Shown here in pieces: positions 51,378 through 58,326 of a DNA stretch of 64,000 nt (within the stretch, counting starts at the first letter, position 1; each line of letters opens with the position of its first letter). The position numbers and the translations under genes are program-made. The notes under the pieces were generated by a model. That model was not told the DNA's origin. It did not search any database and worked only from the letters and a program-made list of their open reading frames with translations. The stretch covers positions 832,001 to 896,000 of the forward strand of contig OZ219787.1 of assembly GCA_964291285.2 (NCBI GenBank), in the 5' to 3' direction. Source of the stretch: Alphaproteobacteria bacterium (GTDB lineage: Bacteria; Pseudomonadota; Alphaproteobacteria; Bin95).

Positions 51378-52088
51378 ATGCTCAGCCTGGTGGATATCCG
51401 CAAGAGCTACGTGACGGGCCCGGTCACCGTCGACGTCCTCCGGGACGTGCGGCTCGACGTGAAGCGGGGCGACCTGATGTCGATCACGGGGCCGTCCGGC
51501 TGCGGCAAGACCACGCTGATGAACATCATGGGCCTGCTGGACCGGCCCACCGGCGGTTCCTGCCTCCTGGACGGGCAGGATATCTCGGGAATGAGCGACA
51601 ACGAGCTCTCCGACATCCGCAACGCCAGCATCGGTTTCGTGTTCCAGGCGTTTCATCTGCTGCCGCGTCTGACGGCATGGGAGAATGTGGCCCTGCCCCT
51701 GCTATATCGCGGCCTGAGCGGCCCGGTCACCAGGCGCCGCGCGCTGGATGTGCTGGACAGCGTGGGCATGGGAGAACGCGCCAGGCACAGGCCGAACCAG
51801 CTCTCCGGCGGCCAGCAGCAACGGGTGGCCATCGCCCGGGCGCTGGCCGGCGAGCCGGCGATGGTGCTGGCCGACGAACCGACGGGCGCGCTGGACGCCG
51901 ACACGGGCGGGGAGATCATGCGGCTGCTGCTCGACCTGAACGCCGCCCGGCAGCTCACCCTCGTCATCGTCACCCATGACCGGCAGGTCGCCCGGCAGTG
52001 CGTGCGGAACGTCCGCGTGCAGGACGGCGTCCTGCGGGAGCTTCCGGCCGTGCCGGAAGGGGCGGCGGCGGTGCCGGAGCCCTCGTAG
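51378..52088 (+). CDS. MacB/LolD-type ABC transporter ATP-binding protein
   Basis: [62 protein letters not shown]. Confidence 0.93.
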
Positions 52089-52098
52089 GCGCGCGCGG

Positions 52099-53295
52099 AT
52101 GGCCCTGCTTCTCGGCACCAATCTCAGGGAAGCGGCGGGCAGCCTGGCCGCCGCCCGGCTGCGCAGCCTGCTCGCGCTGATCGGCATTGCGATCGGCATC
52201 GGCTCGGTGATCGCAATGGTCTCCGTGGGCGAGATCGTCGAGCGGCAGTCCCTCAAGCACTTCGCGGAACTGGGCACCGACATTCTGCTGGTCCACAACC
52301 TCTCGCCTCCCGGCGGGCCGGACGGCCGAAGCCGGGCCACCATCGCCGTCGAGGAAGCCGCCGGGCTCGCGGCGCTCCCCGCCATCGGCGGGGTGGCGCC
52401 TTACATGATCTCCCCGGCGCAGGTCCTCCTCGCCGGCGAGGAAGACACGCGCGTAGCCCTGGTCGGCGCGACGAGGACGCTCGCCGGCCTTACCGGGCTG
52501 CATGTCGAGGAGGGGCGGTTCCTGTCCGATCTCGACGGCCGGCGGTACTATGGCGTGGTCGGGGCGGGAATCGCCGCCTCCATGCGCCGGGCCGGAGCCG
52601 GGCGCGTCGTCGGCGAAACGATCAGGATCGACGACCACGTCTATACCGTCGTGGGCGTGCTGAAAAGCGGGGTCCGGGGTCCGCGGGAGATCCGGGCGGA
52701 CCGCGCGGTATTCATTCCCGTCGGCACGGCGCAGCGGGTGTTTCGCAACCCGGACATCCGCACCGTCATGGCGCGCATGGCCCCCGGCGCCCACCACCTG
52801 GCGGCAGGCGCGCAGGTGCGCGACTATTTTCGCCGCAGGTCGGCGGACCTCGTCATCCATGTCGAAAGCCCGAAGGAGCTGATCGAGAAAATGCAGCAGC
52901 AGTCGCGGCTGTTCACGCTGCTGCTGGGCATGGTGGGCGGCATCTCGCTGCTGGTCGGCGGCATCGGGGTGATGAACGTCATGCTCGTCTCCGTCAGCCA
53001 GCGGCGCCTGGAGATCGGCATAAGGCGGGCCATCGGCGCGCGCCGGAGCCATGTCCAGTGGCAGTTCCTGATCGAGTCGTTCCTGCTGGTGCTGCTGGGC
53101 GGCATCCTCGGGATTGCGCTCGGCGCCGGCGCGACCTGGGCCATCTGCCGCTTCGCCGAGTGGCCGTACCGCGTGTCGACCGAGGCGGCCGGCCTTGCAC
53201 TGGCGGTCACCGCCGCCTGCGGCATCCTGTTCGGCCTCTATCCGGCCCGGCAGGCTTCCCGGCTCGATCCGGTGGCGGCGCTGCGCGGGCGCTGA
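52099..53295 (+). CDS. MacB/FtsX-type ABC transporter permease
   Basis: [19 protein letters not shown], large periplasmic domain, [42 protein letters not shown]. Confidence 0.93.
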
Positions 53296-53369
53296 CCGCC
53301 GAGCAGCTCCACTATTGAATGCCAATCGCAAGCGTTGCTGCGGAAATTGGCCGATATTTTTATTGAAAT

Positions 53370-53430
53370 GACATCCTAAAGCCGTTTCCTACATGAAAAA
53401 TTAACGAATTATATGCTATGATGAGGCTGA
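53370..53430 (+). promoter_or_regulatory. Candidate promoter of the cysteine-rich protein array
   Basis: AT-rich tract with an extended -10 TGcTATGAT (53414-53422). Confidence 0.4.
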
Positions 53431-53534
53431 TTTGAGCTTGCCGGCTCGATGAACACAGAGACCGGGAGTCTGGCGCGGTGGAGTGGACCGTCTTGTTCTG
53501 GCGCAAACCGCAGAGTCGCCATCGGAGGTATCGG

Positions 53535-53846
53535 ATGCCTGATTCGCGACTGAAATCGCGTCTTCTCGTTCTCGCGGCCGCCCTCATCGTGCTCGCGCCG
53601 ACCGCCGCGTGGGCGTCGTCCGCTTGGGACCAGCAATGCAGGACGCAGTTCAACAAGAGCGATGCCGGCCGCACGTCGGGCAGCAATATCTGCTGGTGGC
53701 AGAGCGGGTCGTGGAGCGGCGGCAATTGCACGATAACGACGAAGTGCTTCGTCGGCACGCAATACAGCCTCAGCACGGTAACGGTTGGCTTGATCGAGGC
53801 CCAGAACCTGCAAAATTGTACCGGATACATCGCCTTGTCATGCTGA
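53535..53846 (+). CDS. Secreted six-Cys small protein 1
   Basis: GGAGG RBS; signal peptide ending AWA; CRTQF...C...CTITTKC...NCTGYIALSC. Confidence 0.85.
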   Translation: MPDSRLKSRLLVLAAALIVLAPTAAWASSAWDQQCRTQFNKSDAGRTSGSNICWWQSGSWSGGNCTITTKCFVGTQYSLSTVTVGLIEAQNLQNCTGYIALSC

Positions 53847-53969
53847 GTTGACGAGCCCGTTCGCGCCTGGTCCCGCGTGGAGTCCGGGGCGACAGCCCTC
53901 GTCGGGCCGCGGCGGTGTCTGGAGAGTCGTTAGGGAAGGGAATCGGGCAAAAGATAAGGAGCCGAGCCA

Positions 53970-54323
53970 ATGCCACCCATCGCCAATCGTCCGCGCGCCC
54001 GCGCTTCGCTCGCTCTGGCCGCCTTCGTGCTGGTGCTGGCCGGTCCGGCGGTCGAGGAGGCGAAGGCCCAGTCCGCCGCCACGGTGCAGAGTTGCAAGAA
54101 TGCGTGGTACAGCGCCTCCGCCCGCCCAACCTGTACGACTGTGCCGAACGACATCCTTCTGTCGAACGGCCAATGCCGCATCAAGAAGAGCTGCAAGTAC
54201 TACGGGATAGGCTCCATGGGCGTCACCCAGGCGCTGTACAAAGCCAATGACGTGACGGTTCCCCTCGCCGACGTCGACGACCTGCACAATTGCAATGGCG
54301 AACTACAGGTAGGCGCGTGCTGA
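53970..54323 (+). CDS. Secreted six-Cys small protein 2
   Basis: AAGGAG RBS; signal ending AKA; CKNAWYSASARPTC, CRIKKSC, NCNGELQVGAC. Confidence 0.88.
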   Translation: MPPIANRPRARASLALAAFVLVLAGPAVEEAKAQSAATVQSCKNAWYSASARPTCTTVPNDILLSNGQCRIKKSCKYYGIGSMGVTQALYKANDVTVPLADVDDLHNCNGELQVGAC

Positions 54324-56827: not shown

Positions 56828-56904
56828 TGCCGGAGAGGCGGCGTCCGTCGCTGAGATGCTCCGGAGCGGCGTCCGTTCGGGCTGAAACGGCCTCATCCCT
56901 ACAG

Positions 56905-57216
56905 CCTCAACCTGCCTGCCCCCGCGAAGGCGGGGGGCACCCCGGACTTGATCCACTGCTGTCCGGTTCAGCCATCAGGGCGAAGCCGATTGGGGTCGGC
57001 CGGGTTTCCCCCTCCCGCTGGGCGGGAGGGGTCAGGGGAGGGCCTCGCGGCGCGCGCGGACGGTTGCCGGGCTTCGCCCGCCGCCGCGCTGGACGCGGCG
57101 AACGTTACGAATGGCGGCGTTGGCGCCGCCGCCGGCCTGACGGCCGGCCCCCTCTCCCGTCCTCTCCCCGCAAGCGGGGAGAGGGGATTTGCAGCCGGCG
57201 CTACTCAGGATGAGGG
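56905..57216. repeat. Cluster of palindromic REP-like hairpins between the convergent halves of the array
   Basis: CCCCCGCGAAGGCGGGGG, CCCTCCCGCTGGGCGGGAGGG, CCTCTCCCCGCAAGCGGGGAGAGG, and GCCGGCGCTACTCAGGATGAGGG (shared with 49081-49103). Confidence 0.65.
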
Positions 57217-57232
57217 ACGCCGGCCGGTCGGG

Positions 57233-57544
57233 TCAGCACCCCGCCAGCGACAGCTCCAGGACGCCGTCGCAGTTGTGGAACGTGTGAACCACGTAATAGC
57301 CCGCCTTGACGTCGTTCTGGTGGGTGGCGATACCGTCGGACCTGGTGCAGGTCACCTTGATTCGGCATTGCTCGGTCCAGGACTGCCAGACAACGCTTGA
57401 GACGACGGTGCATGTGTCGGCGGCCTCACTGCGGTCCCACTCGGTCCTGCAGTTCTGGTTGCTGGTGGCCGAAACGCCGGCCGGCATCGCCGCCAGCAGC
57501 AGCAGCGCGGCGGCGGCCGCCAACGGGACTCGAAGCTTGCGCAT
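57233..57544 (-). CDS. Secreted six-Cys small protein 9
   Basis: GGAGGAGG RBS; signal ending VSA; CRTEWDRSEAADTC, CRIKVTC, NCDGVLELSLAGC. Confidence 0.88.
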   Translation of the reverse strand: MRKLRVPLAAAAALLLLAAMPAGVSATSNQNCRTEWDRSEAADTCTVVSSVVWQSWTEQCRIKVTCTRSDGIATHQNDVKAGYYVVHTFHNCDGVLELSLAGC

Positions 57545-57591
57545 GGATTCCCTCCTCCGGGCCGGGGCGGCAGGGACGCCGCCCGCCCGTG

Positions 57592-57894
57592 TCAGCATTG
57601 GGACAACTTCAGGAAGCCGTTGCAGTTGATGTAGTACGGGACAAAGGCCGGGGCCCTGTTGACCTGCTGGTTGTGAAAGCCGCCGGAACCCGTGTTGCAA
57701 CCCACGAAGATCGAGCATTTCCCGGAGTTCGGCCACCAGTTGATGGAGAGGTTGTGGGTGCATGAGTCGGAGGCCGAACTGGCGTTCCACTGGTTTCTGC
57801 AATGCTGGGCGCTGTTGGCCGAAGCACCGTCCGGCATCGCCGCCGACAGGAACGCGGCGGCGGCGATCGCCAACGGGAGTCGAAGGTGGGGCAC
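57592..57894 (-). CDS. Secreted six-Cys small protein 10
   Basis: GAGGAG RBS and GTG start; signal ending ASA; CRNQWNASSASDSC, CSIFVGC, NCNGFLKLSQC. Confidence 0.88.
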   Translation of the reverse strand: MPHLRLPLAIAAAAFLSAAMPDGASANSAQHCRNQWNASSASDSCTHNLSINWWPNSGKCSIFVGCNTGSGGFHNQQVNRAPAFVPYYINCNGFLKLSQC

Positions 57895-57969
57895 GAGACG
57901 TCTCCTCTTATGGGGTTTCCAGGAGCCGGAACATCTCCCGCGGCCGCAAGGGGTTCGTCGGCACGGCGT

Positions 57970-58326
57970 TCACGGGCAGGGGTAGATCTTGAGGGTCCCG
58001 TGGCAGTTCACCACGTTCTGCGCCTTGGGCCATGTGACCGTGATCGAGGACCAGTTTCCCTCGCTGTCTCCCTGCCAGCGTTCGCACCTCGCCCTGATCT
58101 TGCAGCAGCCGGCGGTGGGGACGGAGATATTCCTGTCCGTGCAGCTGTGCTGCGCCGAGCCGGAAAACCAGCCATTGTTGCAATTGATCTGGGTGGTGTA
58201 GGACGATATCGGCCCCGGACACGAGAGCGCCTGCGCGGCGCCGGGCGCCAGAACGCAAAAGGCGAGGGCGGCGAAGCCCAGCGGGACGGCAAGGACACCA
58301 CGCATCCGGATTCGCGCGAAGAACAT
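57970..58326 (-). CDS. Secreted Cys-rich small protein 11 (8 Cys in the mature part)
   Basis: GGAG RBS; signal ending AQA; LSC, CNNGWFSGSAQHSC, CCKIRARC, NCHGTLKIYPCP. Confidence 0.86.
   Translation of the reverse strand: MFFARIRMRGVLAVPLGFAALAFCVLAPGAAQALSCPGPISSYTTQINCNNGWFSGSAQHSCTDRNISVPTAGCCKIRARCERWQGDSEGNWSSITVTWPKAQNVVNCHGTLKIYPCP

Follow-up and report, generated by a model that had tools for sequence, protein, structure and literature searches.

Cysteine-rich small secreted proteins encoded beside a MacB-type tripartite pump with a PAS-bearing adaptor

Introduction

STII is an enterotoxin of 48 amino acids that carries two disulfides. It is exported by the Sec pathway, oxidised by the Dsb system and then expelled by the MacAB-TolC tripartite pump (PMC5985334). 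Here we describe a locus whose products may take a similar route, found in a 64,000-nucleotide stretch of an alphaproteobacterial genome (GenBank assembly GCA_964291285.2, contig OZ219787.1, positions 832,001 to 896,000; 68% GC) that we refer to as the window. Between positions 53535 and 58326 the window holds 11 paralogous genes of one family, 10 of them intact and one frameshifted, which encode small cysteine-rich proteins with predicted Sec leaders. We call these genes c1 to c11 and their products cargo, a term that anticipates the predicted export.

Several other described systems resemble this locus in part. The Aat system comprises a MacB/Lol-like ABC transporter, an adaptor and a TolC-like protein encoded beside the gene of a Sec-dependent cargo of about 10 kDa (PMC5985334, PMC7943197), and it is defined by the Lnt-like protein AatD (PMC7943197). 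In the host-associated bacterium Legionella pneumophila, the LitOPAI genes follow the order outer-membrane protein, adaptor, separate ATPase and MacB-like permease, and the machine is proposed to take its substrate from the periplasm (PMC11559062). DevBCA-HgdD of Anabaena and PvdRT-OpmQ of Pseudomonas are likewise MacB-type tripartite exporters of periplasmic substrates, but these substrates are glycolipids and a siderophore rather than proteins, and no PAS domain is described for either pump in the available portion of that review (PMC5985334). The same source reports that the cytoplasmic N-terminus of the adaptor DevB is needed for export, and that the adaptor N-terminus controls pump activity for both DevB and MacA.

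Results

All four components by which a MacB-type tripartite pump is recognised are encoded in the window, namely a permease with MacB_PCD and FtsX domains, an ATPase of the LolD/MacB clade, an adaptor of the HlyD family and an outer-membrane factor of the TolC family. As a first-pass annotation of this DNA had stated, the ATPase and permease genes stand directly before the cargo genes, and the Pfam and NCBIfam domains agree on their type. The ATPase (51378-52088, plus strand) is a separate polypeptide with a Pfam ABC_tran domain, and its NCBIfam E-values are 7.4e-70 for LolD, 2.4e-67 for MacB and 5e-62 for DarD. The permease (52099-53295, plus strand) combines the MacB_PCD periplasmic domain (Pfam, 3.7e-32) with FtsX (1.6e-22), and its best NCBIfam match is MacB (2.6e-52, compared to 5.9e-7 for LolC/E).

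The adaptor, also called the membrane fusion protein (MFP), is encoded far from this pair at 1680-3596 on the minus strand. Its gene is intact and specifies 638 amino acids, with matches to HlyD_D23/HlyD_3 and PAS in Pfam and to RND_mfp and sensory_box in NCBIfam. The protein is composed of a PAS domain (approximately residues 55-170), a coiled coil, one transmembrane segment and the HlyD part, and its C-terminus agrees with the consensus end of 12 orthologs. The extension formed by the PAS domain and coiled coil, about 220 amino acids in length, is conserved and predicted to be cytoplasmic. By term counts, 'PAS domain' occurs zero times in the reviews on adaptors and on MacB that our literature search listed. 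The gene for the TolC-family protein, which we call the OEP gene after its Pfam domain, is present in two pieces on the minus strand, a 3' part at 3597-4530 and a 5' part at 6552-7162, each with an OEP match. The early assignment of TolC and MFP genes to 1680-7153 was thus correct in kind and nearly so in extent (1680-7162), but the OEP gene is interrupted by an insertion sequence (IS).

Two other export routes were considered and rejected. Type I secretion of the HlyBD-TolC kind is inconsistent with a permease that is of the FtsX/MacB_PCD type rather than the six-helix ABC_membrane type, and with cargo leaders of the Sec type. Export by a peptidase-containing ABC transporter (PCAT) that recognises double-glycine leaders is likewise set aside, given that neither the ATPase nor the permease carries Peptidase_C39 and that the leaders are hydrophobic Sec-type sequences rather than double-glycine ones.

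No further permease of the MacB kind was found elsewhere in the source genome, which has two other OEP genes and also has DsbA-family genes. It is 100% complete by marker genes and has no secretin, and we therefore conclude that it has no type II secretion system (T2SS). Across the genus, a secretin scores above cut-off in only three of 17 genomes. At approximately 46488-46970 on the minus strand, a gene product with a C-P-L-C-x-W motif and several hydrophobic segments is a DsbB-type candidate, judged by eye only.

Each mature cargo protein of the window contains one domain of approximately 75 amino acids with six cysteines. The scaffold of shared cysteine and tryptophan positions that had been noticed on first inspection is matched by an alignment of the 10 intact mature parts, in which Cys, Cys, Asn-Cys and Gly positions are invariant and C-x3-W, a further Cys and a Leu are nearly so; the exceptions are c6, where Arg replaces the first Cys, and c1, where Phe replaces the Trp. 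Outside this scaffold the mature parts are only 21-57% identical to c2, which served as the reference. A profile hidden Markov model (HMM) built from the 10 intact mature domains gives E-values of 1e-21 to 1e-27 for each of these members and 5e-8 for the frameshifted c4. A profile search of 1.84 billion representative proteins yielded 564 matches at E ≤ 1e-3, of which 81 reach E ≤ 1e-10. On the strength of the HMM E-values and the existence of relatives, we reject the possibility that the array consists of spurious open reading frames (ORFs).

The cargo family matches no named one, in keeping with the initial impression. Pfam gives nothing above cut-off for the 10 window proteins, NCBIfam holds no family for the domain, and a profile search of all PDB sequences yields no match at E ≤ 10. 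Neither names nor precomputed Pfam domains are attached to the 30 closest relatives listed, and the 10 clusters that we checked are likewise without a name or a precomputed Pfam domain. Pfam was also run on 10 relatives, multi-domain and N-terminally extended ones included; eight have no match, and no credible family emerged. The repeat-rich relatives P0085 and P0089 have short matches to unrelated families that cover zero or one matched stretch each, and the best two matches of P0085 lie barely above the whole-protein cut-off. The ESM Atlas has no entry for the window protein queried or for two homologues, and our literature searches found no paper on the family.

Among 164 relatives, 128 carry a single domain and 36 carry two to six. 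The last domain ends no more than five residues from the C-terminus in 139 of 159 relatives, and the terminal residue is a cysteine in 92 of 164. All six cysteines are present in 176 of 218 domain instances. The fifth and sixth are missing together in 10 of the 218, and there is a weak hint that these two may pair as a disulfide. A second unnamed cysteine-rich domain, which ends in a CC-x-D/N-x-x-x-x-C-N/D-K-S-type stretch, precedes the six-cysteine domain in relatives P0081, P0109, P0111, P0118 and P0123 and in the ORF at 741-965 of locus L116. One protein of this architecture is encoded 2 kb from a pump in a genome of 49% GC.

The linkage of cargo homologues to exporters of this kind greatly exceeds chance; its absence had been named in the first-pass annotation as grounds for refutation. 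Within the genus, we counted cargo-domain matches (E ≤ 1e-4) that lie within 10 kb of a permease gene, and found one at 17 of 31 permease loci, compared to 0.64 expected under random placement. The domain is present in 12 of the other 16 genus genomes, and no match was found among 20 genomes from the family's two other genera. Its background is low, because a sample of 399 genomes from elsewhere in the class gave no match either. At 16 of the 21 genus loci that were retrieved, the four pump genes form one uninterrupted set.

To extend this comparison across species, we used an alignment of 13 adaptors, which retrieved 79 loci with one genome per species (L071 to L149). In 64 of them the genes adjoin one another as OEP, adaptor, ATPase and permease. 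A variant order is seen in L085, L088, L090, L094, L095, L130 and L134, where the permease gene directly follows the adaptor gene and the OEP and ATPase genes are a few kilobases away or were not found. When flanks of up to 10 kb were searched at E ≤ 1e-5, a cargo domain was present beside 25 of the 79 loci, including all 12 with the most similar adaptors. The cargo-positive loci span GC contents of 0.49 to 0.69, and their permeases are as little as 43-46% identical to that of the window. Furthermore, the cargo genes may precede the OEP gene or follow the permease gene, on either strand, and in co-directional, convergent or divergent orientation, which argues for a functional association over descent of one inherited operon.

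The locus that is most informative about the former state of the window is L071, in which the OEP, adaptor, ATPase and permease genes and five cargo genes are contiguous on one strand. The window and L071 are 90% identical in the ATPase, 90% in the permease and 85% in the adaptor. Positions 10441-10640 of L071 are colinear with the reverse complement of window positions 1680-1779 followed by window positions 51334-51433, and a single CTAG in L071 corresponds to the CTAG at each IS junction in the window. Because this DNA runs uninterrupted across the junction of adaptor and ATPase genes, the distant OEP and adaptor genes are the true partners of the ATPase and permease, a relationship that had been suspected from the window and that the gene order of the related loci also supports. 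Target-site duplications alone would have been uninformative, since the IS targets (C/A)TAG; it was the colinearity with L071 that decided the matter. The OEP sequence is only 56-60% identical between the two loci (window 3597-7162 versus L071 7042-8609), and the operon may be a mosaic.

In the assembly, the two halves of the pump lie approximately 48 kb apart and in inverted orientation, as would be expected if inverted copies of an IS had recombined. An IS of about 2.0 kb is present five times in the 64 kb, in 100%-identical copies, each encoding a DDE_Tnp_1 transposase of approximately 600 amino acids, with 19-bp terminal inverted repeats and (C/A)TAG flanks. Copy a (1-1679, minus strand) is cut by the window edge. 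Its left end abuts the stop codon of the adaptor gene, and this TAG lies within the CTAG target duplication at 1680-1683, so that the IS is evidently inserted at the stop codon itself. Copy b (4531-6551, plus strand) interrupts the OEP gene and is bordered by ATAG at either end; the 5' part of that gene aligns to L071 7580-7679 and the 3' part to L071 from 7684, which leaves a gap of 4 bp between the halves on L071. Copy e (49312-51333, plus strand) ends 44 nt before the ATPase start, where its right end and the CTAG at 51330-51333, the duplicated target, abut the spacer that precedes the gene. This junction is contained within contigs from three public runs of one study (X1-X3), all of which start at 51307. 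Copies c (24151-26168) and d (34559-36580) have unlike flanks, which suggests further IS-mediated rearrangements.

Two other features accompany these elements. Immediately to the left of copy e, an IS3-family element (HTH_21 and rve integrase, with an upstream ORF) occupies 47646-48889. The region at 34001-38000 has a GC content of 0.55-0.62, compared to approximately 0.69 elsewhere, and may represent foreign DNA beside copy d.

The cargo array itself was originally read as 11 genes, eight on the plus strand and three convergent on the minus strand. The count, strands and common family all hold, but c4 is a frameshifted pseudogene. On the plus strand lie c1 (53535-53846, 103 amino acids), c2 (53970-54323, 117), c3 (54350-54682, 110, with a mature part 57% identical to that of c2), c4 (54753-55101), c5 (55123-55452, 109), c6 (55502-55906, 134, with an additional cysteine later in the sequence), c7 (55962-56369, 135, with a C-terminal tail) and c8 (56468-56827, 119, with a proline-rich C-terminal tail). 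The minus strand carries c9 (57233-57544, 103), c10 (57592-57894, 100, with a GTG start) and c11 (57970-58326, 118, with seven cysteines in the mature part). The two groups converge at approximately 57000. The frameshift of c4 is a single one near 55020-55035, and the counterpart in L071 (12908-13135) is intact. Contigs from runs X1-X3 show no indel relative to the window in this region, and the frameshift is thus not an error of this assembly alone.

Words that resemble Shine-Dalgarno (SD) sequences lie 6-10 nt upstream of all starts in the array. The leaders of all 10 intact proteins show a basic n-region, a hydrophobic core (mean Kyte-Doolittle value of 2.2-3.3 over 12 amino acids) and small residues at -3/-1 by a crude rule. 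These features bear out the ribosome-binding site and Sec signal that had been ascribed to each gene. The c11 start is assigned to the ATG at 58326 because the SD-like word fits that codon, which upholds the boundary first given for this gene. By the same crude rule, the predicted +1 residues of the 10 proteins are mostly S, Q, T, N or L; Gly appears at +1 only at alternative sites of c2, c3 and c7, and no such site is common to the 10. The mature proteins are 7.7-10.6 kDa with isoelectric points of 4.1-8.7. A lipoprotein reading was rejected, as no lipobox is present.

Comparison with L071 indicates how unevenly these genes are conserved. Orthologs of c5, c7 and c10 are 84%, 80% and 84% identical (the last over 80 amino acids) and those of c2 and c6 are 55-58% identical, while c1, c3, c8, c9 and c11 have no ortholog above 45%. 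Cargo repertoires turn over. In the closest cargo pairs, the leaders are 58-65% alike versus 29-39% for the mature parts.

A scan of the locus for promoters and terminators found one promoter-like site, compared to 0.9 expected. Between the converging groups, contigs from runs X1-X3 cover the segment at 56940-57250 at approximately 10-fold the depth seen around it and show joints and loose ends there; the segment is probably a short multi-copy repeat. Directly after the array, a 531-amino-acid ORF (58626-60221, minus strand) begins with a twin-arginine-like leader (RRKFL); it has no Pfam or NCBIfam family and no homolog in L071.

The cysteine-rich family is not the only small secreted family found beside these pumps. 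Clustering of the flanking ORFs of the 79 loci showed small secreted proteins that bear one Calx-beta domain to be the commonest further neighbours, present at 26 loci, where the assignment is by Pfam on one clustered ORF (L123) and on two similar ORFs of the genus locus L043. One or the other family, cysteine-rich or Calx-beta, stands beside the pump at 42 of the 79 loci. In L043, Calx-beta proteins are encoded near the pump at 2049-2699, 11840-12403 and 12404-13303, and these proteins share a nearly identical leader with a three-domain cysteine-rich protein. What follows the permease gene at Geobacter-type loci is a set of ORFs for small secreted proteins, Lcl_C proteins among them. The pump at such Geobacter/Trichlorobacter-type loci (L102, at 5655-8553 and 13876-14265, and L093, L103, L109 and L110) is flanked by STAS and anti-sigma-type genes and a sigma-54 activator, and an unnamed 129-amino-acid protein with four cysteines is encoded there along with the small secreted Lcl_C proteins. 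Finally, a Lnt-like gene (LNT_N and CN_hydrolase) lies directly beside the pump at four of the 79 loci (L074 14326-16020, L076 14382-15998, L077 13781-15325 and L147 6675-8435). Some of the cargo proteins at these four loci have a Gly near the likely cleavage site.

Discussion

The cargo genes and their family, the parts of the pump, the former contiguity of its two halves and the conserved neighbourhood of pump and cargo genes are established by these comparisons. From this gene neighbourhood we infer that the pump exports the cargo. We favour a two-step route for diversified small folded proteins, in which Sec and Dsb act first and a PAS-regulated MacB-type tripartite pump acts second, and we give this reading a probability of roughly 0.55. 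The cargo would pass the inner membrane via Sec with cleavage of its leader, and the Dsb system would then oxidise it to form three disulfides. In the periplasm, the periplasmic domain of the permease would capture the folded cargo domain, and ATP-driven expulsion through the duct formed by the adaptor and the OEP would follow, on the model of STII and MacAB-TolC. Gating of the pump is probably the task of the adaptor's conserved cytoplasmic extension, with its PAS domain and coiled coil. The mature cargo size falls within the range from STII to dispersin, and the 10-kDa dispersin may mark the upper size of MacB-type cargo (PMC5985334).

Among known systems, MacAB-TolC with STII is the nearest parallel. 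The likeness extends to the MacB_PCD and FtsX permease, the LolD/MacB-clade ATPase, the HlyD-family adaptor and the TolC-family duct, and STII is a small, Sec-exported, Dsb-oxidised protein that leaves from the periplasm (PMC5985334), a path that is only predicted for the window cargo. Unlike E. coli MacAB, however, the pump described here has a separate ATPase and permease, which are fused in E. coli MacB, an OEP gene within the operon, and an adaptor with approximately 220 amino acids of cytoplasmic PAS and coiled coil. Compared to STII, the window cargo belongs to an unrelated family, has six cysteines in about 75 amino acids, and is encoded by multiple genes adjacent to the pump. It is equally unrelated to the Aat cargoes dispersin and CexE, from which it also differs in being disulfide-rich, multi-copy and apparently without a conserved N-terminal Gly, and no AatD-type gene accompanies the pump in the window. 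LitOPAI, which we set beside this locus by description rather than by sequence, has the same gene order, but the available text names no substrate for it and mentions no cargo genes next to the Lit genes (PMC11559062). LitP is only 381 amino acids long and hence lacks the PAS extension. The role of the DevB N-terminus offers a precedent for regulation via the cytoplasmic part of an adaptor. Since MacB-type export of proteins is already known, what is new here is the unnamed cargo domain, the cargo cassettes of at least two families, and the PAS-bearing adaptor.

A number of observations weigh against the favoured two-step route. The linkage is weaker in reverse, as a permease lies within 10 kb of only 17 of the 43 genus cargo clusters, with 26 located away from the pump; in the source genome, which has the array and three solitary copies of the domain, three of these four places have no such pump within 10 kb. 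The presence or absence of pump and cargo matches in 13 of 16 genomes of the genus, which are few and kin, with two genomes that have the pump only and one that has the cargo only. Across species, 54 of the 79 adaptor loci have no cysteine-rich cargo in their flanks, and none was found at 16 loci of the Geobacter, Trichlorobacter, Desulfobacter or similar types. Tandem proteins of up to seven domains fit poorly with a simple picture of small cargo; the extreme case, encoded far from the pump in a genus genome (G011), is a 588-residue protein with seven domains and acidic, proline-rich linkers. In the source genome the pump is disrupted though 10 of the 11 cargo genes are intact, and the export route is probably impaired there unless one of the two other OEPs substitutes. 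The break may be recent, because the IS copies are 100% identical. The long-range inverted order depends on one assembly with identical 2-kb repeats, in which the contigs support the junctions only. If these repeats were mis-joined, the true state would be a simple insertion, and the OEP gene would be disrupted either way.

Much of this evidence can be read differently. Perhaps the neighbours are not cargo at all, and the pump expels a small molecule, a lipid or a host peptide. The cysteine-rich proteins would then be ordinary Sec-exported proteins of the periplasm or outer membrane that accompany the pump because both belong to one host-association island, either co-regulated or transferred together, or they would be periplasmic partners comparable to LolA, EnvC and TesA in a type VII ABC system. 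The cargo clusters that lie off the pump, the solitary copies in the source genome and the survival of the cargo genes beside a broken pump are all in accord with this idea, and the tandem proteins of three to seven domains resemble binding or structural proteins. Type VII ABC systems with periplasmic protein partners do exist (PMC12646458), and the available text on LitOPAI, with its equal gene order, knows of no substrate (PMC11559062). We nevertheless consider this explanation rather unlikely. The neighbourhood is kept across pumps that are only 43-46% identical, GC contents from 0.49 to 0.69 and varying orientations; two unrelated small secreted families stand beside one pump family; up to 11 divergent copies per locus are ill-suited to a stoichiometric partner; and an OEP and an adaptor in the operon indicate passage across the outer membrane.

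It is improbable, in our view, that the proteins are bacteriocin-like weapons and that the pump clears them from the producer's envelope, thereby combining immunity and release. The genes are multi-copy and divergent, and five of the 10 intact ones have no L071 ortholog above 45% although the ATPase, permease and adaptor are 85-90% identical; the leaders of close pairs are more alike than their mature parts, and relatives of MacB confer resistance to peptide antibiotics (PMC5985334). However, no candidate immunity gene was found between or beside the cargo genes, as had already been remarked of the window, the leaders are of the Sec type rather than double-glycine and the ABC proteins lack a C39 peptidase. 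The range of isoelectric points means that the proteins are not uniformly cationic, and tandem multi-domain forms would be unusual for bacteriocins. We regard as very improbable, for the window, a display mechanism like that of Aat, in which a Lnt-like enzyme acylates the N-terminus of the cargo and the pump hands the resulting lipoprotein to the cell surface without release. Aat has equal kinds of parts (TolC-like protein, adaptor, LolD-like ATPase, LolC/E-like permease and a gene for a small Sec-dependent cargo; PMC7943197), and the four loci with a Lnt-like gene directly beside the pump count in its favour. In contrast, the sole LNT_N gene of the source genome (C3:548682) is approximately 283 kb from the window (C3:832001-896000), and the number is likewise one in 14 of the other 16 genomes of the genus. 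By the crude cleavage rule, the 10 window proteins share no Gly where their mature parts are predicted to begin, and the permease fits MacB far better than LolC/E. The analogy to Aat that the first-pass annotation drew therefore fails on the defining acyltransferase, as the window encodes no AatD-type enzyme and the genome has no second copy of such a gene.

The larger proposal of that annotation, secretion by way of Sec, Dsb and a MacB-type pump, fares better. The cargo family, the MacB-type ABC pair, its partners, the linkage, the cargo size, the lack of a secretin and the presence of DsbA genes are all consistent with it. Apart from the Aat analogy, what goes too far is the description of the exporter as 'dedicated', given the 26 of 43 genus cargo clusters that lie off the pump and the single Calx-beta proteins that neighbour the same pump family.

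With regard to the role of the cargo, we infer that the bacterium is host-associated and that these proteins serve it as a diversified set of binding modules, either extracellular or on its surface. The occurrence of relatives in a sponge metagenome makes a eukaryotic target plausible: in a run with this label, contigs that span the ATPase, the permease and four of the cargo genes are 90-99% similar. The shares in runs X4, X5 and X7-X20 are small and are not counted as habitat evidence. Many record titles among the retrieved adaptor loci name sponge-associated candidate taxa, and the name 'Poriferihabitaceae' appears in a sponge genome note (PMC12859430). More tentatively, and with odds that we would place below even, the PAS-gated MacB-type machine, not described before, might serve host-associated bacteria as a general, T2SS-independent second step in the secretion of small folded proteins. 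Its cargo would come in interchangeable cassettes (six-cysteine, single Calx-beta and, at Geobacter-type loci, perhaps Lcl_C) of fast-turnover host-interaction modules that are released or displayed, with Aat-like acylation in a minority.

Few proteins are known to exit Gram-negative cells via MacB-type pumps, namely STII, dispersin and CexE, and the present locus suggests that nature uses the route far more widely. We find the pump subfamily at 79 loci, each from a different species, 42 of which have one of two small secreted families, and most of the genus is without a secretin. The locus also brings to light an adaptor that bears a sensor domain and a disulfide-rich domain that has no name but 564 representative relatives, and an operon dismantled by an apparently recent burst of IS insertion can be viewed at base level. 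Orphan pumps such as LitOPAI of Legionella would gain a testable class of substrate, and the cargo proteins are candidate means by which uncultured symbionts might address the marine animals that they inhabit.

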